Source of the DNA: Candidatus Latescibacterota bacterium
Lineage (GTDB): Bacteria; Latescibacterota; UBA2968; UBA8231
NCBI GenBank assembly: GCA_965223905.1
Contig: CBDCXV010000010.1
Span: 2,080,001-2,144,000, forward strand
Direction: 5' to 3'
DNA length: 64,000 nucleotides
Every line of letters begins with the position of its first letter. Position 1 is the first letter of the stretch. Below the pieces are notes generated by a model. The model was not told where the DNA came from. It saw only the letters and a list, made by a program, of their open reading frames with translations, and searched no databases. Below are positions 53,438-57,325 of the stretch, one piece after another. A program made the position numbers and the translations under genes.

Positions 53438-54430
53438 TTACGGGCCGCTCACTAGGCGCGCTACCCATTGCGAGAACGTGTCCAAGACAGTCACGCGCCT
53501 GTTGGAGACAAAGCAGATACTCCTTCCGTCAGGCGACCAAGCCGGTTCCCTGTCGGTGGCCAGACCCTGCGTGATCCTTGACACGGCCGATCCATCAGCG
53601 GCCATACGGTAGATATTAAAACTGCCGCTTCGATCCGATGCGAAGGCAATCTCCATGCCGTCAGGAGCCCACGACGGCGCGACATCGTGGGCAGGATGAT
53701 CACTGACATTCACCACTTCACCGCCGTCGGCGTTGACGATGCAGATTTCGCTATTGCCGTAGCGACCAGTCTCGAAGGCTATCCGGGTTCCGTCCGGAGA
53801 CCACGACGGGCGCATGTCGTAGCTTTCATGTTGGCTCAGGTTGCGGGCTTGCAATCCGTTGGCATCAGCTATGTAAACCTCGAGATTGCCATCGCGTGAC
53901 GTCGCGAACGCAATTCGACTGCCATCCGGGGACCACACCGGCATGAGTCCATCACGCACAATGCGCCCTATCGTCTCTTGGGAAGCCCCGGATTCCATGG
54001 CGTAGATGTCGTAGCTACGCTTTGTGCCATCTGGCTCGATGGTCAATGCGCTGAACACAACCTCAGCACCGTCTGGCGACCACGATGCTCCCCGCGGGTG
54101 CGTTACATGTGAGGGTAGCTGCAACGTCAGGTTTGTTAAATCGTCAAGAGAGACAACACGGAACTCACTGGTCTTCCCGTCATACGCTCCGTACAGAATA
54201 CGGCCACCATCCGGCGCCCAGGTCGGACTGGAGGCGTTACCTGTTAGCTCACCCGAAACCCTCTCCAGGCTGGAGCCGTCCTTCTCCGCGCAGAAAACCC
54301 CCTCCGTTTGGTGCCCGCTTTGGTGCCCGCTGGCGGACCCCTGCCAAAGCACGGCTACTATCGCAAGTCCAATGGCTGAGACACGCGCATTTCTTCTTAG
54401 ACAACCAAAGCTGTTTTTGTGAGTCTCCAT
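53438..54430 (-). CDS. TolB-like PD40 beta-propeller, exported
   Basis: Repeated P.WSPDG..IAF.S.R.GN.EIY units; hydrophobic signal. Confidence 0.9.
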   Translation of the reverse strand: METHKNSFGCLRRNARVSAIGLAIVAVLWQGSASGHQSGHQTEGVFCAEKDGSSLERVSGELTGNASSPTWAPDGGRILYGAYDGKTSEFRVVSLDDLTNLTLQLPSHVTHPRGASWSPDGAEVVFSALTIEPDGTKRSYDIYAMESGASQETIGRIVRDGLMPVWSPDGSRIAFATSRDGNLEVYIADANGLQARNLSQHESYDMRPSWSPDGTRIAFETGRYGNSEICIVNADGGEVVNVSDHPAHDVAPSWAPDGMEIAFASDRSGSFNIYRMAADGSAVSRITQGLATDREPAWSPDGRSICFVSNRRVTVLDTFSQWVARLVSGP

Positions 54431-54448
54431 CGGTTGTCGTCCGGGCAA

Positions 54449-54498
54449 GACAACGGACAGGTGGCCCTCTACGCAGGTCGGGTCACCTGTCCGTTGTC
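54449..54498. terminator. Long intergenic hairpin between precursor and TolB-like gene
   Basis: GACAACGGACAGGTGGCCC...GGGTCACCTGTCCGTTGTC, 19-bp stem with one G-T pair. Confidence 0.6.
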
Positions 54499-54551
54499 GC
54501 TATTGTTTTTCGTCATCGCAGATGCAAACGGATTCCTTGAGCAAAGCAAAT

Positions 54552-54602
54552 AAACCAAGACGAGTGGAACTCACTGCATAGTCGCTCCACTCGCCCCGGT
54601 TT
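54552..54602 (-). terminator. Hairpin immediately 3' of the precursor gene
   Basis: CGAGTGGA/TCCACTCG stem extended by AAACC/GGTTT, followed by T-rich sequence on the minus strand. Confidence 0.5.
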
Positions 54603-54618
54603 CTCGCTTCAATTTGAA

Positions 54619-54939
54619 TCAGTTATTATAGCACCTACAGGGACCACCGAGAGACCAGCATTCACCCACGTTGTGCCCGTTAACTAGGCACCACGTATAC
54701 TTGCATCCCGCGTTTGTTACACAGGGGCCGCCATGGCGATGGGGGCCATCAGGAGGGGTATTCGCCACAGATGCCGTGGGCCCACCAAGCATCACCGCGG
54801 CGGCAATCATGATGCTTGCCGTCCACGACAACGCCAAGCTATTCTGCTGCTTCACGAATCCCGTTTCATCCGAAACGAAACTCCTGAGCACTCCAATAAT
54901 CCGTCCCATCGGTTTCTCCTTTCGAATGATCCGTCCCAT
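54619..54939 (-). CDS. Small precursor: Flp/pilin-like leader + hydrophobic segment + six-Cys defensin/CSαβ-like domain
   Basis: AAAGGAG RBS before ATG 54939 and ATG 54909; LRSFVSDETG|F leader; C-terminus CVTNAGCKYTWCLVNGHNVGECWSLGGPCRCYNN. Confidence 0.8.
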   Translation of the reverse strand: MGRIIRKEKPMGRIIGVLRSFVSDETGFVKQQNSLALSWTASIMIAAAVMLGGPTASVANTPPDGPHRHGGPCVTNAGCKYTWCLVNGHNVGECWSLGGPCRCYNN

Positions 54940-54955
54940 CGGTTTCTCCTTTCGA
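54899..54955. repeat. 30-bp-period tandem duplication of RBS + start codon
   Basis: ATCCGTCCCATCGGTTTCTCCTTTCGA at 54899 and 54929. Confidence 0.9.
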
Positions 54956-55105
54956 TGGTGGATAGGATAGAAACGAACTGCTCCACTGTAACCCAAGCTG
55001 GCCGAAAGGTCAAGTCCCACAAGTCCCAATTTTAATTGAAACAGAGCACGGGCTCGGGTGAGTGGGTCAGCCTCTGAAATTGCTCTGGATCCATCATTCG
55101 ATCTC

Positions 55106-56173
55106 TCAACCACCGAGCCACTCGACAAGCGCCACCAGGGGCGGCACCAGATTCCCCGCAAAGAACGCCGTCAAAGCCGCAGCTCCGGCGATCACCGGCA
55201 CGAACGGAATCGCTTGCTCTACCTCCACCGCTCGCTGTCCCGGCGTTGACCCACCCCCCATTGCGGACCGAATGATTGCCGCTTGCTTTTCTGACAGGGG
55301 TCGTCCCGCTTCAATCTTGTGCTCCGCGCCGTCGGCCCCTGCCAGCTGGAGCCCATTGCGCAGGATCGCTCCCGCCCTCAAATACCGAACGGGAAACAGC
55401 TGCACATACGCACGGCTGGACCATCGCCGCACATACTGGTAGCCTGCCTCTACCAGCCAGGCCGCCGCCATCAGAATGGCATACTCCTGCCAAGCCGAGG
55501 TCGTGTAACCGACATACAGGAAGGCCATGGCCCCCGGGATCACGACCAACGGCCAGTAGGGGACCTTCAGCAGTTTCTCCATCACGTGGTATCCGATCAC
55601 GACCCCAGCGAAGGCCTCGAGGTACGACAGCGGCCTCTCCATCACGATCACCGAGAACGCCAGGGTCAGCCCGGCCATACCTGCCAGCCCGACGGCCGCG
55701 CGAAAGAGTTCGGGTTTCGCTCCTTCCCCGCTTTCCCCCGCTTGCCACTGCCGTTGCCAGAACGGGACCAGCAACAACACCAACAGGTTACAAGCCAGAG
55801 TGTTCAGGATCAGGGCCACCGGGGGAGCGTGGAAAGAGAACGGATCGGCGCTCGGACACAGCGTCGGGGGCAGGGCAGAAACCACCGCCCAGAAGAACCT
55901 GGCGTCGCCGGGCGCCCAGAAGCCGAAGACCATCAGGCCGAGGGCTATGACCAAACCGGTCAGAAGCAAAGCCACGACCCGACTCAGGGTCGTGACGTCG
56001 AGCGACACCATGATCAGCTGTCCGGCGATGCCGATCAGGAGCAGTCCGAAGGTGTAGCGATTCGGAACGAGCCGCACCGACAGATCGGTGTAGCTCAGGT
56101 AGAAACCCGCCGACAGCAGCGCCGTCAGCATGACGACTTCGGTCAGAAAGACAGGATCGTCGTAGAGCGTCAT
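55106..56173 (-). CDS. A24 prepilin/preflagellin peptidase with extended C-terminal domain
   Basis: SYTDL..R.VPN (first Asp), WAPGDA (GxGD-type second Asp), C-terminal IPFVP; multiple TM helices. Confidence 0.85.
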   Translation of the reverse strand: MTLYDDPVFLTEVVMLTALLSAGFYLSYTDLSVRLVPNRYTFGLLLIGIAGQLIMVSLDVTTLSRVVALLLTGLVIALGLMVFGFWAPGDARFFWAVVSALPPTLCPSADPFSFHAPPVALILNTLACNLLVLLLVPFWQRQWQAGESGEGAKPELFRAAVGLAGMAGLTLAFSVIVMERPLSYLEAFAGVVIGYHVMEKLLKVPYWPLVVIPGAMAFLYVGYTTSAWQEYAILMAAAWLVEAGYQYVRRWSSRAYVQLFPVRYLRAGAILRNGLQLAGADGAEHKIEAGRPLSEKQAAIIRSAMGGGSTPGQRAVEVEQAIPFVPVIAGAAALTAFFAGNLVPPLVALVEWLGG

Positions 56174-56748
56174 GACGACTTCTCAAGCAGCCGTTCCACC
56201 AGCGCCATGCCCTCTTCCACGCCGAGGCCGGCCCCGGCAATCCTCCCATCCTTATCGAGCAGGTAGGTGGTCGGCACCGCAGCCGCGTTGTACTCACCGG
56301 CGATTGTGCGGGAGCTGTCACTCAACACGGGAAAGGCGGCCGCGACATACGCCTCCACCTTCCGCTGCTCGGCGCTCAGTTTATCGGAGTCCACATCGCC
56401 CGGGGTGATAAAGATCAAGCGGTCCTTCACCGATAGATCCCGATCGAGCAACAGCGTCTTCAACTCCTTGCAGTACGGGCAGGTCGGAGTCACGAATAGG
56501 AGAACCGAGTAGGAACCTCTGAGATCCGCCGGGCCCATGGTCTTGCCGTCCGTCATCGGAAGGCGGAAGTCGGGCGCTGCTGTCCCCTCAGTCAGCAGTC
56601 CGTGCCCGGGGCCCCCTTCGTGACTGTGCCCTTCCTGAAGCGTGCGCTGCACGCGCGACTCCTCGGGTGCGGGCTTCATCATCATGCCCACCAGCAGTAC
56701 GATTCCCAGCCCGCCGCCCATCATGGCCATCTTGTGTTTGCTGCCCAT
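56170..56748 (-). CDS. Membrane-anchored TlpA/redoxin (CPYC)
   Basis: N-terminal TM, APDFRL, CPYC, VPTTYLLD.DG; ATGA/TAATG overlaps with neighbours. Confidence 0.85.
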   Translation of the reverse strand: MGSKHKMAMMGGGLGIVLLVGMMMKPAPEESRVQRTLQEGHSHEGGPGHGLLTEGTAAPDFRLPMTDGKTMGPADLRGSYSVLLFVTPTCPYCKELKTLLLDRDLSVKDRLIFITPGDVDSDKLSAEQRKVEAYVAAAFPVLSDSSRTIAGEYNAAAVPTTYLLDKDGRIAGAGLGVEEGMALVERLLEKSS

Positions 56749-57263
56749 TACCGGCCCCCTCCTCTCATGTCCTGCCACTCTTCCAGAATCCGGTCGACAC
56801 TGCGCACCCCCGTCGCCGCGGTGAGCACGATCCCGTCACCCCCGATCAGCAGAGTGCTCGGATGAACCTGCACACCGTACCGATCACCCACCTCGAACTG
56901 GCTGTCATGACCCGCGCTCACCGCTAACTCGTGCTGCGACAGCTTGGTCCGAAGGTCCTCCGCCACGCCGACTCCAATCACCAGCACCGGCATCTGTGCT
57001 GCAGCCCGCTTCAAAGCCGGATAGGTCGCGTCACAGGCTGGGCAGGCCGAATTGGTGAAGAACAGCACGCCAGCCTCGGTCTTGACCGCGGTGGTCAAGG
57101 TGTGCAGAGAGACCGGGCGGCCGTCCAACCCAGTGATTTCGAAGCCGGGCGCCGGCAAGCCCAGCAGAGGCGCGAACGGCTGCGGCTCAATGCCAGGCGG
57201 ATAGCCCGTATCGAGCCGCGCTGCCAGACTGATGCAGATGGCCAGCAGGAGGCCTGCCGTCAC
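56748..57263 (-). CDS. Redoxin (CPAC), probably 5'-truncated by the repeat junction
   Basis: APGF...LDG, CPAC, HPSTLLI; the frame stays open upstream to the 57325 junction with no clear RBS. Confidence 0.75.
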   Translation of the reverse strand: MTAGLLLAICISLAARLDTGYPPGIEPQPFAPLLGLPAPGFEITGLDGRPVSLHTLTTAVKTEAGVLFFTNSACPACDATYPALKRAAAQMPVLVIGVGVAEDLRTKLSQHELAVSAGHDSQFEVGDRYGVQVHPSTLLIGGDGIVLTAATGVRSVDRILEEWQDMRGGGR

Positions 57264-57325
57264 CGACAGCCCTTTGACGGCGGCGTCGATCCGGAGTCCC
57301 TGTGCGGGGTCTCCGGAACTGCCTG

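Follow-up and report, generated by a model that had tools for sequence, protein, structure and literature searches.

A prepilin-type peptidase, thioredoxin-like proteins and a variable defensin-like peptide in a recurrent gene cassette of Latescibacterota

We analyzed a window of 64,000 nucleotides from a Latescibacterota genome and found a gene cassette in which a prepilin-type A24 peptidase, uncoupled from pili, probably serves the maturation of secreted disulfide-rich mini-proteins. If this reading is true, it represents an undescribed way of making such proteins: a lineage without type IV filaments retains a pilin-cutting enzyme beside a variable defensin-like peptide. An earlier note on this DNA had proposed that a pilin-type processing route was repurposed for a toxin or antimicrobial, with a neighboring propeller as immunity or partner protein. 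Our results support this interpretation in part: linkage, absence of pilus machinery and likeness to defensins hold, while membership of the PD40 propeller and identity as a Flp pilin do not.

We envisage the following pathway. The 96-aa precursor would use its one hydrophobic segment to enter the inner membrane, with the N-terminus in and the C-terminus out. The A24-like peptidase would remove the cytoplasmic Flp-like leader after a conserved Gly (FVSDETG/F). The six-Cys domain may then fold oxidatively in the periplasm, helped by the two redoxins, TlpA/ResA/MauD-like CxxC proteins that are anchored in the membrane; where cassettes are complete, an FMN-binding-like CxxC membrane protein is the likely electron sink. 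Signal peptidase I may finally cut at a P-x-x-A-x-A site, yielding a free peptide of ~47 aa with a cysteine-stabilised alpha-beta (defensin-like) fold.

The cassette genes and the propeller are five co-stranded ORFs, all of which our ORF check of the window recovered on the minus strand where they had been described. The locus contains, in coordinates of the window:

51819..52411, no strand: direct repeat copy 1, with the 3' end of a GH32-like gene (484 aa) and an intergenic stretch
52434..53321, minus strand: par1-family secreted protein, C-terminus ...SWARIKASFGE
53438..54448, minus strand: PD40 beta-propeller, 336 aa, N-terminal hydrophobic segment, PD40 repeats with E 6.9e-42
54619..54909 or 54619..54939, minus strand: precursor gene, 96 or 106 aa, starting at ATG 54909 or 54939
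55106..56173, minus strand: A24-family GxGD-type aspartic membrane peptidase, 355 aa, PF01478 over residues 19-129
56170..56778, minus strand: redoxin 2, thioredoxin fold, CPYC, N-terminal hydrophobic anchor, Pfam AhpC-TSA 55 bits and Redoxin 40.3 bits
56748..57263, minus strand: redoxin 1, TlpA/ResA/MauD-like thioredoxin fold, 171 aa, CPAC, Pfam AhpC-TSA 42 bits and Redoxin 26.6 bits
57326..57915, no strand: direct repeat copy 2, a 5'-truncated fragment of the same GH32-like gene, beginning ~60 bp past the redoxin 1 start

Overlaps suggesting translational coupling can be read directly in the sequence, as reported before. Redoxin 2 likely starts at ATG 56748, which overlaps the stop of redoxin 1 in TAATG (the longest ORF begins at GTG 56778), and the peptidase ATG overlaps the redoxin 2 stop (ATGA). 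The genes assigned to the unit stand, but its boundaries had to be corrected to the 593-bp direct repeat, whose ~98% identical copies flank 5.5 kb, and a fifth component of most other copies is absent here. Arrays of the expanded par1 family (68 tblastn HSPs in the genome) house the cassette; the par1 protein at this locus has no Pfam or NCBIfam match.

The peptidase is only just above the Peptidase_A24 cut-off in the window (28.3 versus 26.5 bits) and scores 31.7 bits in the genome search. The catalytic Asp30 (YTDL..R.VPN) and Gly89-Asp90 (WAPGDAK) are invariant in 16 aligned peptidases. Foldseek, run with the AlphaFold2 (AF2) model (pLDDT 70.7), gave a single match that makes structural sense: FlaK (3s0x), with probability 0.66-0.69, a TM by target of 0.44-0.53 and E 1.6-2.0. 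A beta-rich insert is predicted around residues 256-320, ahead of the last helices.

We confirmed that the window holds no type IV filament machinery, and the search was extended to the whole 7.9-Mb genome, 93.6% complete: neither contains the filament ATPase (T2SSE), the platform protein (T2SSF) or a secretin, and no Tad or type IV pilus locus was found elsewhere in the genome. Flp_Fap is absent from this genome and from all 168 genomes of the phylum. These observations bear on one alternative, an ordinary minor or Flp-type pilin of a Tad/type IV pilus system that is encoded elsewhere or missing from the assembly, which is largely refuted and to which we give hardly any credence. The leader shape and the A24 peptidase do fit a pilin, public sources and pipelines label the peptidase or its relatives CpaA or prepilin peptidase, and genome completeness is 93.6%. 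Yet the machinery is missing, and 24 of the 28 peptidase-bearing genomes of the order, several of them single-contig, lack T2SSE over cut-off; it is present in 4/28 such genomes versus 14/48 others. Nor is the precursor itself a Flp pilin: a search at E<=10 still gave no match to Flp_Fap, and Glu at position +5 occurs in 18 of 166 leader-bearing members.

The precursor sequence is as previously quoted and divides into three parts, with a short duplication around its start:

54619..54762, minus strand: residues 50-96 and stop, a 47-aa core with six cysteines, C-x5-C-x4-C-x9-C-x6-C-x-C
54763..54858, minus strand: residues 18-49, with ~8 mostly polar residues, a membrane helix and GGPTASVA (alignment, AF2)
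54859..54909, minus strand: residues 1-17, the leader ending FVSDETG, with putative A24 cleavage after Gly17
54892..54951, no strand: tandem duplication, 30 bp twice, repeating the ribosome-binding site, ATG and first codons

The duplication copies the AAGGAG ribosome-binding site along with the ATG, hence the two possible starts; relatives begin at the downstream one. An assembly artefact is excluded, since contigs from other studies, of run X3 (library of unrecorded type) and of RNA-library run X12, cross the duplication with 0 differences.

Fourteen close relatives share an invariant leader and a variable core; together with a gene set recurring in many genomes, this argues for more than chance. 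A search of 1.84 billion proteins returned 221 family representatives at E<=1e-3, and the leader expression F-x-x-[SD]-E-x-G fits 166 of 198 unique family sequences. Across 29 sequences F11 never varies and E15 and G17 hardly do; in 44 sequences G17 is conserved in at least 90%. Between leader and core lies a segment of constant length (~31 residues), polar and then a putative membrane helix (AF2 helix at residues 21-41), ending in a signal-peptidase-I-like P-x-x-A-x-A that had been overlooked: A49 is invariant and P44 nearly so in the 29-sequence alignment, and in 131/166 leader-bearing members the Gly and the small-x-small motif are 31-34 residues apart. Judging from this pattern, signal peptidase I may cleave after Ala49. 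Among close relatives, identity is 83% in the leader and membrane segment and 46% in the core.

The precursor differs from known prepilins in that its hydrophobic tract begins ~8 polar residues after the Gly and the window's copy lacks Glu5; an excerpt of PMC4471445 places the cut of known prepilins at the start of that tract. A decidedly unlikely reading is that the A24-like protein leaves the leader uncut. It would instead act on the membrane remnant, as a signal-peptide peptidase does, or be an immunity protein or regulator. The precursor would then start with an ordinary Sec signal peptide, long in its n-region, and F-x-x-SE-x-G would be a signal on it for targeting or for a chaperone. The distance of the Gly from the tract speaks for it, as do the features of a Sec signal peptide, all present in the precursor (charged n-region, hydrophobic stretch, A-x-A); GxGD proteases, moreover, include intramembrane-cleaving enzymes. 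Against it, the most conserved precursor residues are precisely the F and E-x-G ending the leader, the peptidase and precursor are present or absent together, and prepilin peptidases depend critically on a single residue, the Gly at -1, as a passage of PMC4471445 states.

Likeness of the core to defensins and scorpion toxins, suggested earlier, is backed by several concordant, individually weak results. An AF2 model shows beta-alpha-beta-beta topology (strand 57-59, helix 66-74, strands 81-84 and 91-94) with pLDDT 83-88 for residues 61-96. Defensins, gamma-thionins or scorpion toxins make up 23 of the 25 Foldseek matches listed, all with weak scores, and defensins or toxins 26 of 28 non-artefact PDB profile matches, also weak; Pfam Gamma-thionin weakly matches 6/29 family members. 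On the other side, the published CS-alpha-beta expression demands C-x3-C where the window's core reads C-x4-C; it fits 11/15 close family members and 74/198 of the whole family. The core is hypervariable, with mostly 6, 8 or 10 cysteines (in 34, 69 and 15 of 162 database proteins, respectively) and frameworks that change across the family. Conservation of the leader beside hypervariability of the core, with as many as 20 precursor matches in one genome, is compatible with a diversifying effector, for instance a candidate antimicrobial, toxin or host-interaction peptide.

The proposed linkage is conserved in other genomes. Within the order, the peptidase occurs in 28 and the precursor in 29 of 76 genomes, the 28 all being included in the 29. 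Across the phylum the counts are 32 and 39 of 168, and all 32 peptidase genomes carry the precursor, usually adjacent and with redoxins; related genomes in these counts are not independent samples. Presence is patchy inside genera (18/31, 5/10), both genes being scored in the same genomes. In seven genomes precursor-like matches occur although the peptidase is missing: those in G163 and G166 are remnants of a deletion or an IS, that in G049 is a fusion protein, those in G042, G154 and G161 are weak, and the G027 genome is 75% complete. Thirty Latescibacterota-type loci contain a redoxin in every case and a same-strand precursor in 27. The pair is also found in two other families of the phylum and in an Anaerolineales MAG and two further bacteria.

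A redoxin 1 homolog adjoins the A24-like gene in most related loci. Redoxin 1 has a hydrophobic N-terminus serving as membrane anchor or signal, and its best NCBIfam matches (MauD, ResA, DsbE) each fall under their cut-offs, as do those of redoxin 2 (ResA, MauD, StoA). TlpA/ResA-type proteins are usually reductants, so an oxidative role for the cassette redoxins is one that we infer. A genome search found neither DsbB nor VKOR; the genome encodes one DsbD_TM, ApbE and two signal peptidases I. Complete cassettes elsewhere carry the FMN-binding-like membrane protein, which the earlier note missed; the window's copy lacks this gene, a homolog of which sits on another contig. In most loci it adjoins the redoxins or the peptidase. 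CxxC is present in 27/27 and [ST]GA[ST] in 26/27 unique proteins, 61-63 residues apart, and the Pfam match is below cut-off (14-19 versus 22 bits).

These three redox-type proteins are constant companions, and one may ask whether the Cys-rich products are themselves redox or metal-handling components (disulfide or electron carriers, metal binders) of an extracytoplasmic pathway with FMN-binding-like and thioredoxin-like proteins. In unrelated bacteria the cluster includes a multiheme cytochrome c with a fused DsbA/GILT-like domain, and hybrid flavinylation/thioredoxin-like systems with small CXC proteins have been described (PMC8238504, in extract). We regard this as very unlikely: hypervariability beyond the cysteines (close relatives are 39% identical there), as well as many divergent matches per genome with changing Cys frameworks, are unlike housekeeping carriers.

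The propeller proposed as immunity or partner protein is not a conserved cassette member, a relative lying near the peptidase in 1/30 loci. It is a PD40 propeller but not TolB proper (TolB equivalog 188 bits versus a cut-off of 343), and close paralogs pair with the unrelated par1 family at five other sites in the genome. Neither an immunity gene nor an outer-membrane export route was identified for the cassette. The gene after the precursor usually encodes a secreted beta-rich protein: among 45 unique cases, 19 are FG-GAP proteins with a FlgD_ig/T9SS-like tail, 10 par1 and 1 PD40. With such a gene after most precursors, and some members (L052, G049) fused to a FlgD_ig/T9SS-like tail, the trimmed protein might stay anchored and display its Cys-rich domain in the periplasm, for example to partner these products. 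The membrane segment is better conserved than the core, and processed pilins stay membrane proteins before assembly, according to an excerpt of PMC4471445. We consider such display unlikely, since the partner families encoded downstream share no homology and the fixed-distance P-x-x-A-x-A just before the first Cys resembles a site for the signal peptidases I, of which two are encoded. Release of a free peptide is the reading we retain.

Two further features lie at the precursor gene, the first of them a hint of its expression:

54475..54965, no strand: contigs from two RNA-seq (metatranscriptome) libraries, covering the precursor gene and flanks
54985..55013, minus strand: promoter-like TTGACC-17-TACAGT, upstream of the precursor gene

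The X10 contig (54475-54753) and the X12 contigs (54730-54871 and 54842-54965) show 0 differences to the window; presence in an RNA library is a hint and no proof of transcription. One promoter-like site within 53300-57500, against 1.1 expected in shuffles, carries no significance by itself; from this site to the RNA-library contig end at 54965, downstream, is ~20 nt.

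An earlier note on this DNA had described a co-oriented cluster of two redoxins and an A24 peptidase coupled in translation, with a precursor and a propeller after it. All five ORFs were found on the minus strand, between 53438 and 57263, and the stop/start overlaps, TAATG and ATGA, can be read in the sequence:

56748-57263, minus strand: redoxin 1, thioredoxin fold, CPAC in the translation, at or above the Pfam cut-offs for AhpC-TSA and Redoxin
56170-56778, minus strand: redoxin 2, thioredoxin fold, CPYC in the translation, at or above the same two cut-offs
55106-56173, minus strand: A24 peptidase, a 355-aa membrane protein with a narrow pass of the Peptidase_A24 model
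54619-54909 or 54619-54939, minus strand: precursor ORF, 96 aa, or 106 aa from an upstream ATG
53438-54448, minus strand: beta-propeller with PD40 repeats

The propeller had been likened to TolB; it scores 188.2 bits against a TolB equivalog cut-off of 343.15, and we keep for it the description of a PD40 repeat propeller only. The two possible lengths of the precursor result from a 30-bp tandem duplication (54892-54951) that doubles the ribosome-binding site and the ATG. Precursor relatives start at the downstream ATG, and the duplication is spanned, with zero differences, by contigs from two other studies. A direct repeat of 593 bp (51819-52411 and 57326-57915, about 98% identical, 5507 bp apart) flanks a 5.5-kb unit which also holds a gene of an expanded secreted family (52434-53321, the SWARIKASF family discussed below). 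The second repeat copy is a 5'-truncated duplicate (ORF 57302-57808) of the 3' end of a GH32-like gene (50847-52301). This repeat layout suggests homologous recombination as the route by which the 5.5-kb segment came in or was duplicated. A scan for promoters and terminators gave one promoter-like and one terminator-like site, neither above shuffled sequences, the latter located within the peptidase gene.

Two metatranscriptome libraries of a single study, labelled as sponge metagenome, contain contigs identical to the window that jointly cover 54475-54965, a stretch that takes in the precursor gene plus flanks of 144 nt on its downstream and 26-56 nt on its upstream side. These contigs stop about 20 nt from a promoter-like TTGACC-17-TACAGT. 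One more contig shares the leader part and then diverges, as expected of a second family member. The window-identical contigs are a hint of precursor expression, contigs of this kind being no proof of transcription. The rest of 53400-57300 is without cover (3 of 30 depth bins covered in run X10, 2 of 30 in run X12), which says nothing on the silence of the other genes.

A word-indexed search with the precursor returned 14 relatives of 55-86% identity. They hardly differ over residues 1-49, and variation is found across the C-terminal 45 residues, apart from the six cysteines. Genomes of the order and the phylum, together with other loci, supplied further family members. A profile of 44 sequences, run against 1.84 billion proteins, gave 221 representatives at E<=1e-3, 57 of them at E<=1e-10. 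Scans of genome-contig and metagenome-contig collections with the precursor alignment gave no confirmed relative; the genomic context of the family was taken from genome searches and from the peptidase alignment. Family statistics leave out one false match, the repetitive membrane protein P0059.

The leader expression F-x3-[SEDNQT]-[EDSTQR]-[GA] is present in 166 of 198 unique sequences. From the leader Gly to the last small-x-small site ahead of the first cysteine, the distance is 31-34 residues in 131 of these 166, and the site falls just ahead of that cysteine. Positions +3 to +6 are mostly K/P/R/S, P/Q/A, R/Q/K and Q/K/N/R, respectively. An alignment of 29 sequences has no variation at F11 and A49 and almost none at E15, G17, W29 and P44. 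Identity among 13 close relatives (P0012 and P0013, which have frameshift-like tails, being left out) is 83% over the leader and membrane segment, 46% over the core and 39% over the core without its cysteines. The core holds 6 cysteines in 34, 8 in 69 and 10 in 15 of 162 database proteins.

Taken together, family statistics and alignment conservation give a precursor anatomy of three parts: a leader closing with an acidic-x-Gly motif; a segment of fixed length, made of about eight polar residues and one membrane helix, with P-x-x-A-x-A at its end; and a hypervariable cysteine-rich core. The end of the second part fits a Sec class I site, with small residues at -3/-1 past the hydrophobic stretch and a proline upstream (the invariant A49 and nearly invariant P44 of the 29-sequence alignment). 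The genome encodes two full-length signal peptidases I (Peptidase_S26), and such an enzyme would release the product at Ala49. A rival reading retains the same parts and keeps the product tethered to the membrane; the putative site at Ala49 is what a released peptide, our preferred reading, builds on. Some family members are longer: two proteins of 257-278 aa (L052 4551-5324, and L081 6468-7304 from genome G049) have the same leader and membrane segment, then one or two cysteine-rich modules and a C-terminal domain resembling FlgD_ig/type IX secretion domains.

The assignment of the peptidase is a marginal pass: PF01478 (Peptidase_A24) scores 28.3 bits against a gathering score of 26.5, and 31.7 bits in the genome search. 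The same model is found, precomputed, on 35 of 38 close homologs, and public sources call relatives 'Flp pilus assembly protein protease CpaA' or 'prepilin peptidase'. Across 16 aligned peptidases, Asp30 (in Y-T-D-L..R.V-P-N) and Gly89-Asp90 (in W-A-P-G-D-A-K) are invariant, as is A91, and K92 is nearly so; the motif thus reads A-P-G-D-A-K, not G-x-G-D. We take Asp30 and Asp90 to be the two catalytic aspartates of GxGD proteases. An AlphaFold2 model (pLDDT 70.7) contains nine long helices, then a beta-rich insert (about 256-320) ahead of the last two helices. Compared with PDB structures it gave no match at E<=0.001; the only structurally sensible match is the preflagellin peptidase FlaK (3s0x, probability 0.66-0.69, E 1.6-2.0), which superposes at 4.5-5.1 A rmsd over about 150 columns, all higher-ranked rows having an rmsd above 17 A. 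A PDB sequence search with the peptidase gave nothing relevant, and biotin carboxylase (E 0.66) was dismissed as a chance match.

A rival reading has all the same parts and a peptidase that does not cut the leader; the conserved acidic-x-Gly end of the leader has to be weighed against it. In the reading we prefer, the A24-like enzyme would cut after Gly17, on the cytoplasmic face. Additional copies of the peptidase gene were observed. On contig C11 of the same genome (477302-478817; loci L002 and L078) lie a second redoxin 1 and an A24-like gene, the latter split by a frameshift near 477750, with no precursor after it and transposase-like ORFs directly upstream. Another genome of the phylum (G010) has four full-length A24-like genes on its contig C2 (209860, 1452174, 4172346 and 4198760), with 57-58% identity to the query and near-equal scores; two come with redoxins and a precursor, and two stand at the end of co-oriented SWARIKASF-family arrays.

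The earlier note had proposed looking for conserved linkage between peptidase and precursor, and this was borne out: their co-occurrence and adjacency recur in the order, in the phylum and beyond. In the order (76 genomes), at least 28 genomes have the peptidase and at least 29 match the precursor profile, all 28 lying within the 29 and G049 being the extra one. In the phylum (168 genomes), the peptidase profile is matched in at least 32 genomes and a broader precursor profile in at least 39, again with all 32 within the 39. These counts are lower bounds, part of the first-look candidates having been scored (for example, 68 of 104), and they bear on related genomes, which are not independent. 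Within genera, presence is patchy (18 of 31 genomes; 5 of 10), both genes scoring in the same genomes. Precursor-like matches without the peptidase occur in seven genomes: G027 is 75% complete; G042, G154 and G161 have weak matches (E 2e-4 to 8e-4); G049 has a longer protein, in which a FlgD_ig/T9SS-like tail is joined to the same N-terminus; and G163 and G166 carry remnants in which the peptidase-bearing segment is deleted or interrupted beside a transposase-like gene.

At the level of loci, a redoxin homolog lies within 6 kb in 30 of 30 cases and a same-strand precursor in 27; two of the three loci without a precursor have short flanks. These 30 loci come from records titled Candidatus Latescibacterota, with some Gemmatimonadota, and overlap the genomes of the phylum counts. 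The peptidase-precursor pair is also present in two other families of the phylum. In genome G164 an FMN-binding-like gene comes first, followed by two redoxins, the peptidase, a tandem of three precursors and an FtsX-like permease.

In an Anaerolineales MAG (L066), the pair adjoins a radical SAM/SPASM gene. This gene (541-1980) is directly upstream of a precursor of the same leader type (2098-2340), and two proteins of about 880 aa with solute-binding domains precede the A24-like gene and a second precursor. Two further bacteria (L068 and L069) also have the pair; as thioredoxin-type partner they encode a multiheme cytochrome c with a fused DsbA/GILT-like domain. The protein in question (L068 8754-10691, L069 7118-9058) has 645 aa and combines a UshA-like part, multiheme cytochrome c motifs and the DsbA/GILT-like thioredoxin domain; it is adjoined by an ABM-like protein and by PD40 propellers ending in ...TWGDIK or ...WGELK.

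A24 prepilin peptidases count as a hallmark of type IV filament systems. The absence of pilus machinery that the earlier note had seen in the window holds across the genome (7.9 Mb in 11 contigs, 93.6% complete), where T2SSE, T2SSF, Secretin and Flp_Fap have no match; nor was a complete Tad locus found elsewhere in the genome, which the same note had named as evidence against its reading. For the T2SSE traffic ATPase, all 54 first-look candidates in the genome were scored and none matched; the T2SSF polytopic platform protein also has no match there. The only two A24 matches in the genome are the window gene and a frameshifted copy beside a transposase-like gene on another contig. Across the order, T2SSE exceeds its cut-off in 4 of 28 peptidase-bearing genomes (it is absent in 24) and in 14 of 48 others. 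Flp_Fap (PF04964) is found in 0 of 168 phylum genomes, and has no match in 29 precursor members even at E<=10.

These observations bear on the simplest alternative, an ordinary pilin role for the precursor. The precursor has a short leader whose acidic-x-Gly end lies by a hydrophobic segment, as in Flp prepilins processed by TadV/CpaA, and the peptidase is, like TadV/CpaA, an A24 enzyme with two catalytic aspartates and without a methyltransferase domain. Unlike in Flp/Tad systems, there is no ATPase, platform protein, secretin or Flp match, no Glu5/Tyr6, and about eight polar residues follow the Gly; unlike TadV/CpaA, the enzyme has 355 aa with extra helices and a beta-rich insert, and its putative substrate carries a cysteine-rich domain and an A-x-A site. 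Passages of PMC4471445 name four requirements of a type IV filament (pilin, prepilin peptidase, traffic ATPase and polytopic platform protein); in the same passages, a class III signal peptide has a leader Gly followed directly by about 21 hydrophobic residues with Glu5. We looked for three filament features taken from these passages and found none. The precursors fall outside the class III definition: they do have a leader with its Gly, but +3 to +6 are mainly occupied by the residues given above for the family, and Glu stands at +5 in 18 of 166 sequences (R, Q or K in 110). The same passages describe Gly-1 as critical for processing and Glu5 as dispensable there and required for homopolymer assembly (PMC4471445), which fits a precursor that is cut yet unassembled. 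We regard the pilin role as largely excluded.

A24-type processing beyond classical pilins is described, in the portions of PMC4471445 used here, for the archaeal class III signal peptidases FlaK and PibD and for the Sulfolobus bindosome, in which sugar-binding proteins have class III signal peptides. Bindosome localisation still requires the canonical type IV filament machinery (PMC4471445, same portions), of which the window genome encodes none. The present case also differs from the archaeal ones by its bacterial host and its small cysteine-rich peptide substrates.

The core had been likened to defensins and scorpion toxins. We find its resemblance to cysteine-stabilised alpha-beta peptides to be backed by weak but concordant evidence. 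AlphaFold2, given the 29-row alignment, places a strand at 57-59, a helix at 66-74 and strands at 81-84 and 91-94 (pLDDT 83-88). A Foldseek comparison of the core with the PDB gave 28 matches, none at E<=0.001; among the best 25 of these 28 rows, plant or insect defensins, gamma-thionins and scorpion toxins account for 23 (TM by target up to 0.73), the remaining two being an unnamed cystine-dense peptide and an unrelated protein. With Pfam at E<=10, Gamma-thionin appears in 6 of 29 members (best 0.0096) and AtDEF-like in 2 of 29, all below cut-offs; no defensin sequence family exceeds its threshold, Gamma-thionin reaching 13.6 bits against 25.1 for the window's protein. In a PDB-sequence profile search, 26 of 28 non-artefact matches are defensins or toxins (E 0.19-8). 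The top three matches of that search, RecA tandem-fusion constructs, were dismissed as artefacts of summed repeats, since their single stretches have E about 2e+02.

Bacterial cis-defensins (xanthusins and the five classes of PMC11561630; actifensins, PMC6989792) are small secreted peptides with a C...CxxxC...C...CxC framework and a cysteine-stabilised alpha-beta fold. The expression used in PMC11561630, C..C-x3-C..C..C-x-C, matches 11 of 15 close family members and 74 of 198 sequences of the whole family. The window's own core, read from the sequence, has C-x4-C in the place of C-x3-C and so falls outside it; other precursor subfamilies have clearly different frameworks, with 8-10 cysteines. 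The precursor family is set apart from the described cis-defensins, which have plain Sec signal peptides; no dedicated peptidase or redoxins are mentioned in the sections of PMC11561630 used here. The screen of that paper, whose tables list 74 bacterial defensins, found myxobacteria, one Acidobacteria, Proteobacteria and one Gram-positive, as far as these sections go. As it discarded sequences with a predicted membrane segment, it would probably have dropped the precursor family.

Both redoxins have hydrophobic N-termini, and their best family matches are MauD, ResA, DsbE and StoA. Neither reaches equivalog identity to MauD, ResA or DsbE, with best scores of 44.8 and 47.9 bits against cut-offs of 123-359. 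Like MauD/ResA/TlpA-type proteins, they have a membrane-anchored thioredoxin fold with CxxC, in a different genomic context; the small subunit served by MauD is rich in disulfides. In the genome, DsbB and VKOR have no match, and DsbD_TM and ApbE have one each. Most related loci encode, beside redoxin 1 or the peptidase, a membrane-anchored protein of about 200 aa with CxxC in 27 of 27 unique versions and [ST]GA[ST] in 26 of 27, CxxC coming first and the spacing being 61-63 residues. Its sole Pfam match is FMN_bind (6 of 6 scanned, 14-18.9 bits against a cut-off of 22). Members of this FMN-binding-like family lie at:

contig C1 of the same genome, 93883-94512 (4883-5512 of locus L077)
related loci L005, L015-L036 and L043-L064

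We consider this protein a candidate flavin-linked thiol oxidase. The window cassette is without the gene, a repeat junction falling about 60 bp past the start of redoxin 1. The 3' end of the genome's one homolog, on contig C1, adjoins a fragment that shares 84.5% identity with the window PD40 gene over the latter's 3' part; this PD40-like fragment is followed by an expanded-family member. Recombination between two earlier copies of a longer cassette could account for the C1 layout. According to excerpts of PMC8238504, ApbE-flavinylated systems likewise place an extracytoplasmic FMN-binding-type protein with a [ST]GA[ST] motif by thioredoxin-like proteins, and their hybrid clusters use DUF3570, DUF4266 and DsbD. 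Unlike the clusters of these excerpts (PMC8238504), the flavin-type protein here has its own CxxC, a Pfam match below the cut-off, and an A24 peptidase and cysteine-rich precursors alongside.

The redoxins would fold the periplasmic domain oxidatively, with the flavin-type CxxC protein as electron sink. The same genes could also be read as a redox pathway in which the peptides are redox components, not effectors; such a rival would share the cysteine-rich cores and the redoxin neighbourhood with the effector reading, in which the released peptide would have a biological activity. Gene content, family anatomy, co-occurrence and the lack of filament genes, DsbB and VKOR are observations, and a cassette maturing secreted disulfide-rich peptides is their best-supported interpretation.

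A wider joint reading, possible but on the doubtful side, would combine three elements: filament-independent secretion and maturation through a hybrid signal, in which a single membrane segment has two cleavage sites, one of class III (prepilin-type) on its cytoplasmic side and one of class I on its periplasmic side; disulfides made independently of DsbB/VKOR by a dedicated flavin and CxxC membrane protein feeding two thioredoxin-like proteins; and, as output of Latescibacterota associated with sponges and of a few other bacteria, arrays of hypervariable peptides, both defensin-like and otherwise cystine-knotted. If true, the cis-defensins would gain a new bacterial branch, ribosomal peptide systems a new class, and A24 peptidases a first bacterial case that operates with no type IV filament at all.

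The general kind, leader-guided maturation of a ribosomal, disulfide-bonded peptide, we rate as already known; the unusual features would be an A24 protease acting without filaments, a two-faced signal and a possible flavin-based disulfide source. The nearest described systems each share a single respect with the cassette: besides the Flp prepilins with TadV/CpaA, the archaeal class III signal peptidases with non-pilin cargo, the cis-defensins of myxobacteria and actinomycetes and the flavinylation/thioredoxin-like hybrids, these are bacteriocin clusters that encode their own leader protease and thiol-disulfide oxidoreductases. Examples are the clusters of pediocin, with its accessory protein, and of sublancin, with BdbA/BdbB. 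As here, a conserved leader, a variable disulfide-bonded core, an own protease and disulfide helpers are joined in one cluster. The present cassette differs in its leader type, in an A24 enzyme instead of a C39 domain or similar, in a presumed double cleavage on both membrane faces, in having no ABC exporter in this subfamily, and in its Gram-negative-type host. A literature search, with most subscription journals outside its scope, found no paper linking an A24 peptidase to cysteine-rich or defensin-like peptides, nor a description of the combination of A24 peptidase, cysteine-rich precursors and redoxins.

What makes the cassette of wider interest is that an A24 enzyme persists in genomes without filament machinery, tracking a family of small cysteine-rich precursors. 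If the peptidase processes these precursors, the substrate range of bacterial A24 enzymes widens to non-filament cargo, genome mining for disulfide-rich peptides gains a new leader type, and bacterial cis-defensin-like peptides reach an uncultured phylum associated with sponges, in which one scaffold carries natural core variants by the hundreds. The FMN-binding-like CxxC companion, in genomes without DsbB/VKOR, makes a flavin-based periplasmic disulfide route directly testable.

The PD40 propeller had been suggested as an immunity or partner protein. As a conserved partner we reject it, a relative being present in 1 of the 30 loci (the expanded family is present in 7); the weaker statement that some secreted beta-rich protein usually comes after the precursor is kept. 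Close paralogs of the propeller (38-79% identity) adjoin SWARIKASF members at five other places of the same genome:

contig C6, about 6751-8400: PD40 paralog site
contig C1, 94481-96017: PD40 paralog site
contig C11, 554813-556523: PD40 paralog site
contig C11, 1697539-1700568: PD40 paralog site
contig C11, 1964434-1965790: PD40 paralog site

The propeller therefore seems to go with the SWARIKASF family rather than with the peptidase. This family forms a paralog array in the window (52434-53321, 57936-58556, 58947-59744, 59793-60360 and 60544-61623). Its members have a signal peptide, an N-terminal ...GDRVYP..E.T.E... and a C-terminal ...DSWARIKASF(G/A)E, with no Pfam or NCBIfam match. We counted 68 tblastn HSPs over four contigs of the genome, and several window copies are split or truncated. 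In several genomes the A24 cassette is placed inside SWARIKASF arrays.

In more distant Latescibacterota subfamilies, a FG-GAP propeller of about 700 aa with a FlgD_ig/T9SS-like tail comes after every precursor (L043, L050, L062 and 16 more), the two forming repeated pairs. One subfamily has, upstream of its peptidase, a sigma-54 activator together with a regulator propeller; seen in that subfamily only, the activator was rejected as a member of the system. Elsewhere in the window, three successive minus-strand ORFs of 943-1007 aa (24863-27886, 27893-30775 and 30955-33786), without a Pfam match at E<=1e-5, occupy a stretch of strongly negative GC skew. Near them lie FG-GAP/ASPIC proteins (1730-3889 and 5088-7286), a DUF6785/DUF6784 protein (12664-14631) and a 1601-aa ORF (40142-44947) with Peptidase_M28 and FtsX domains.
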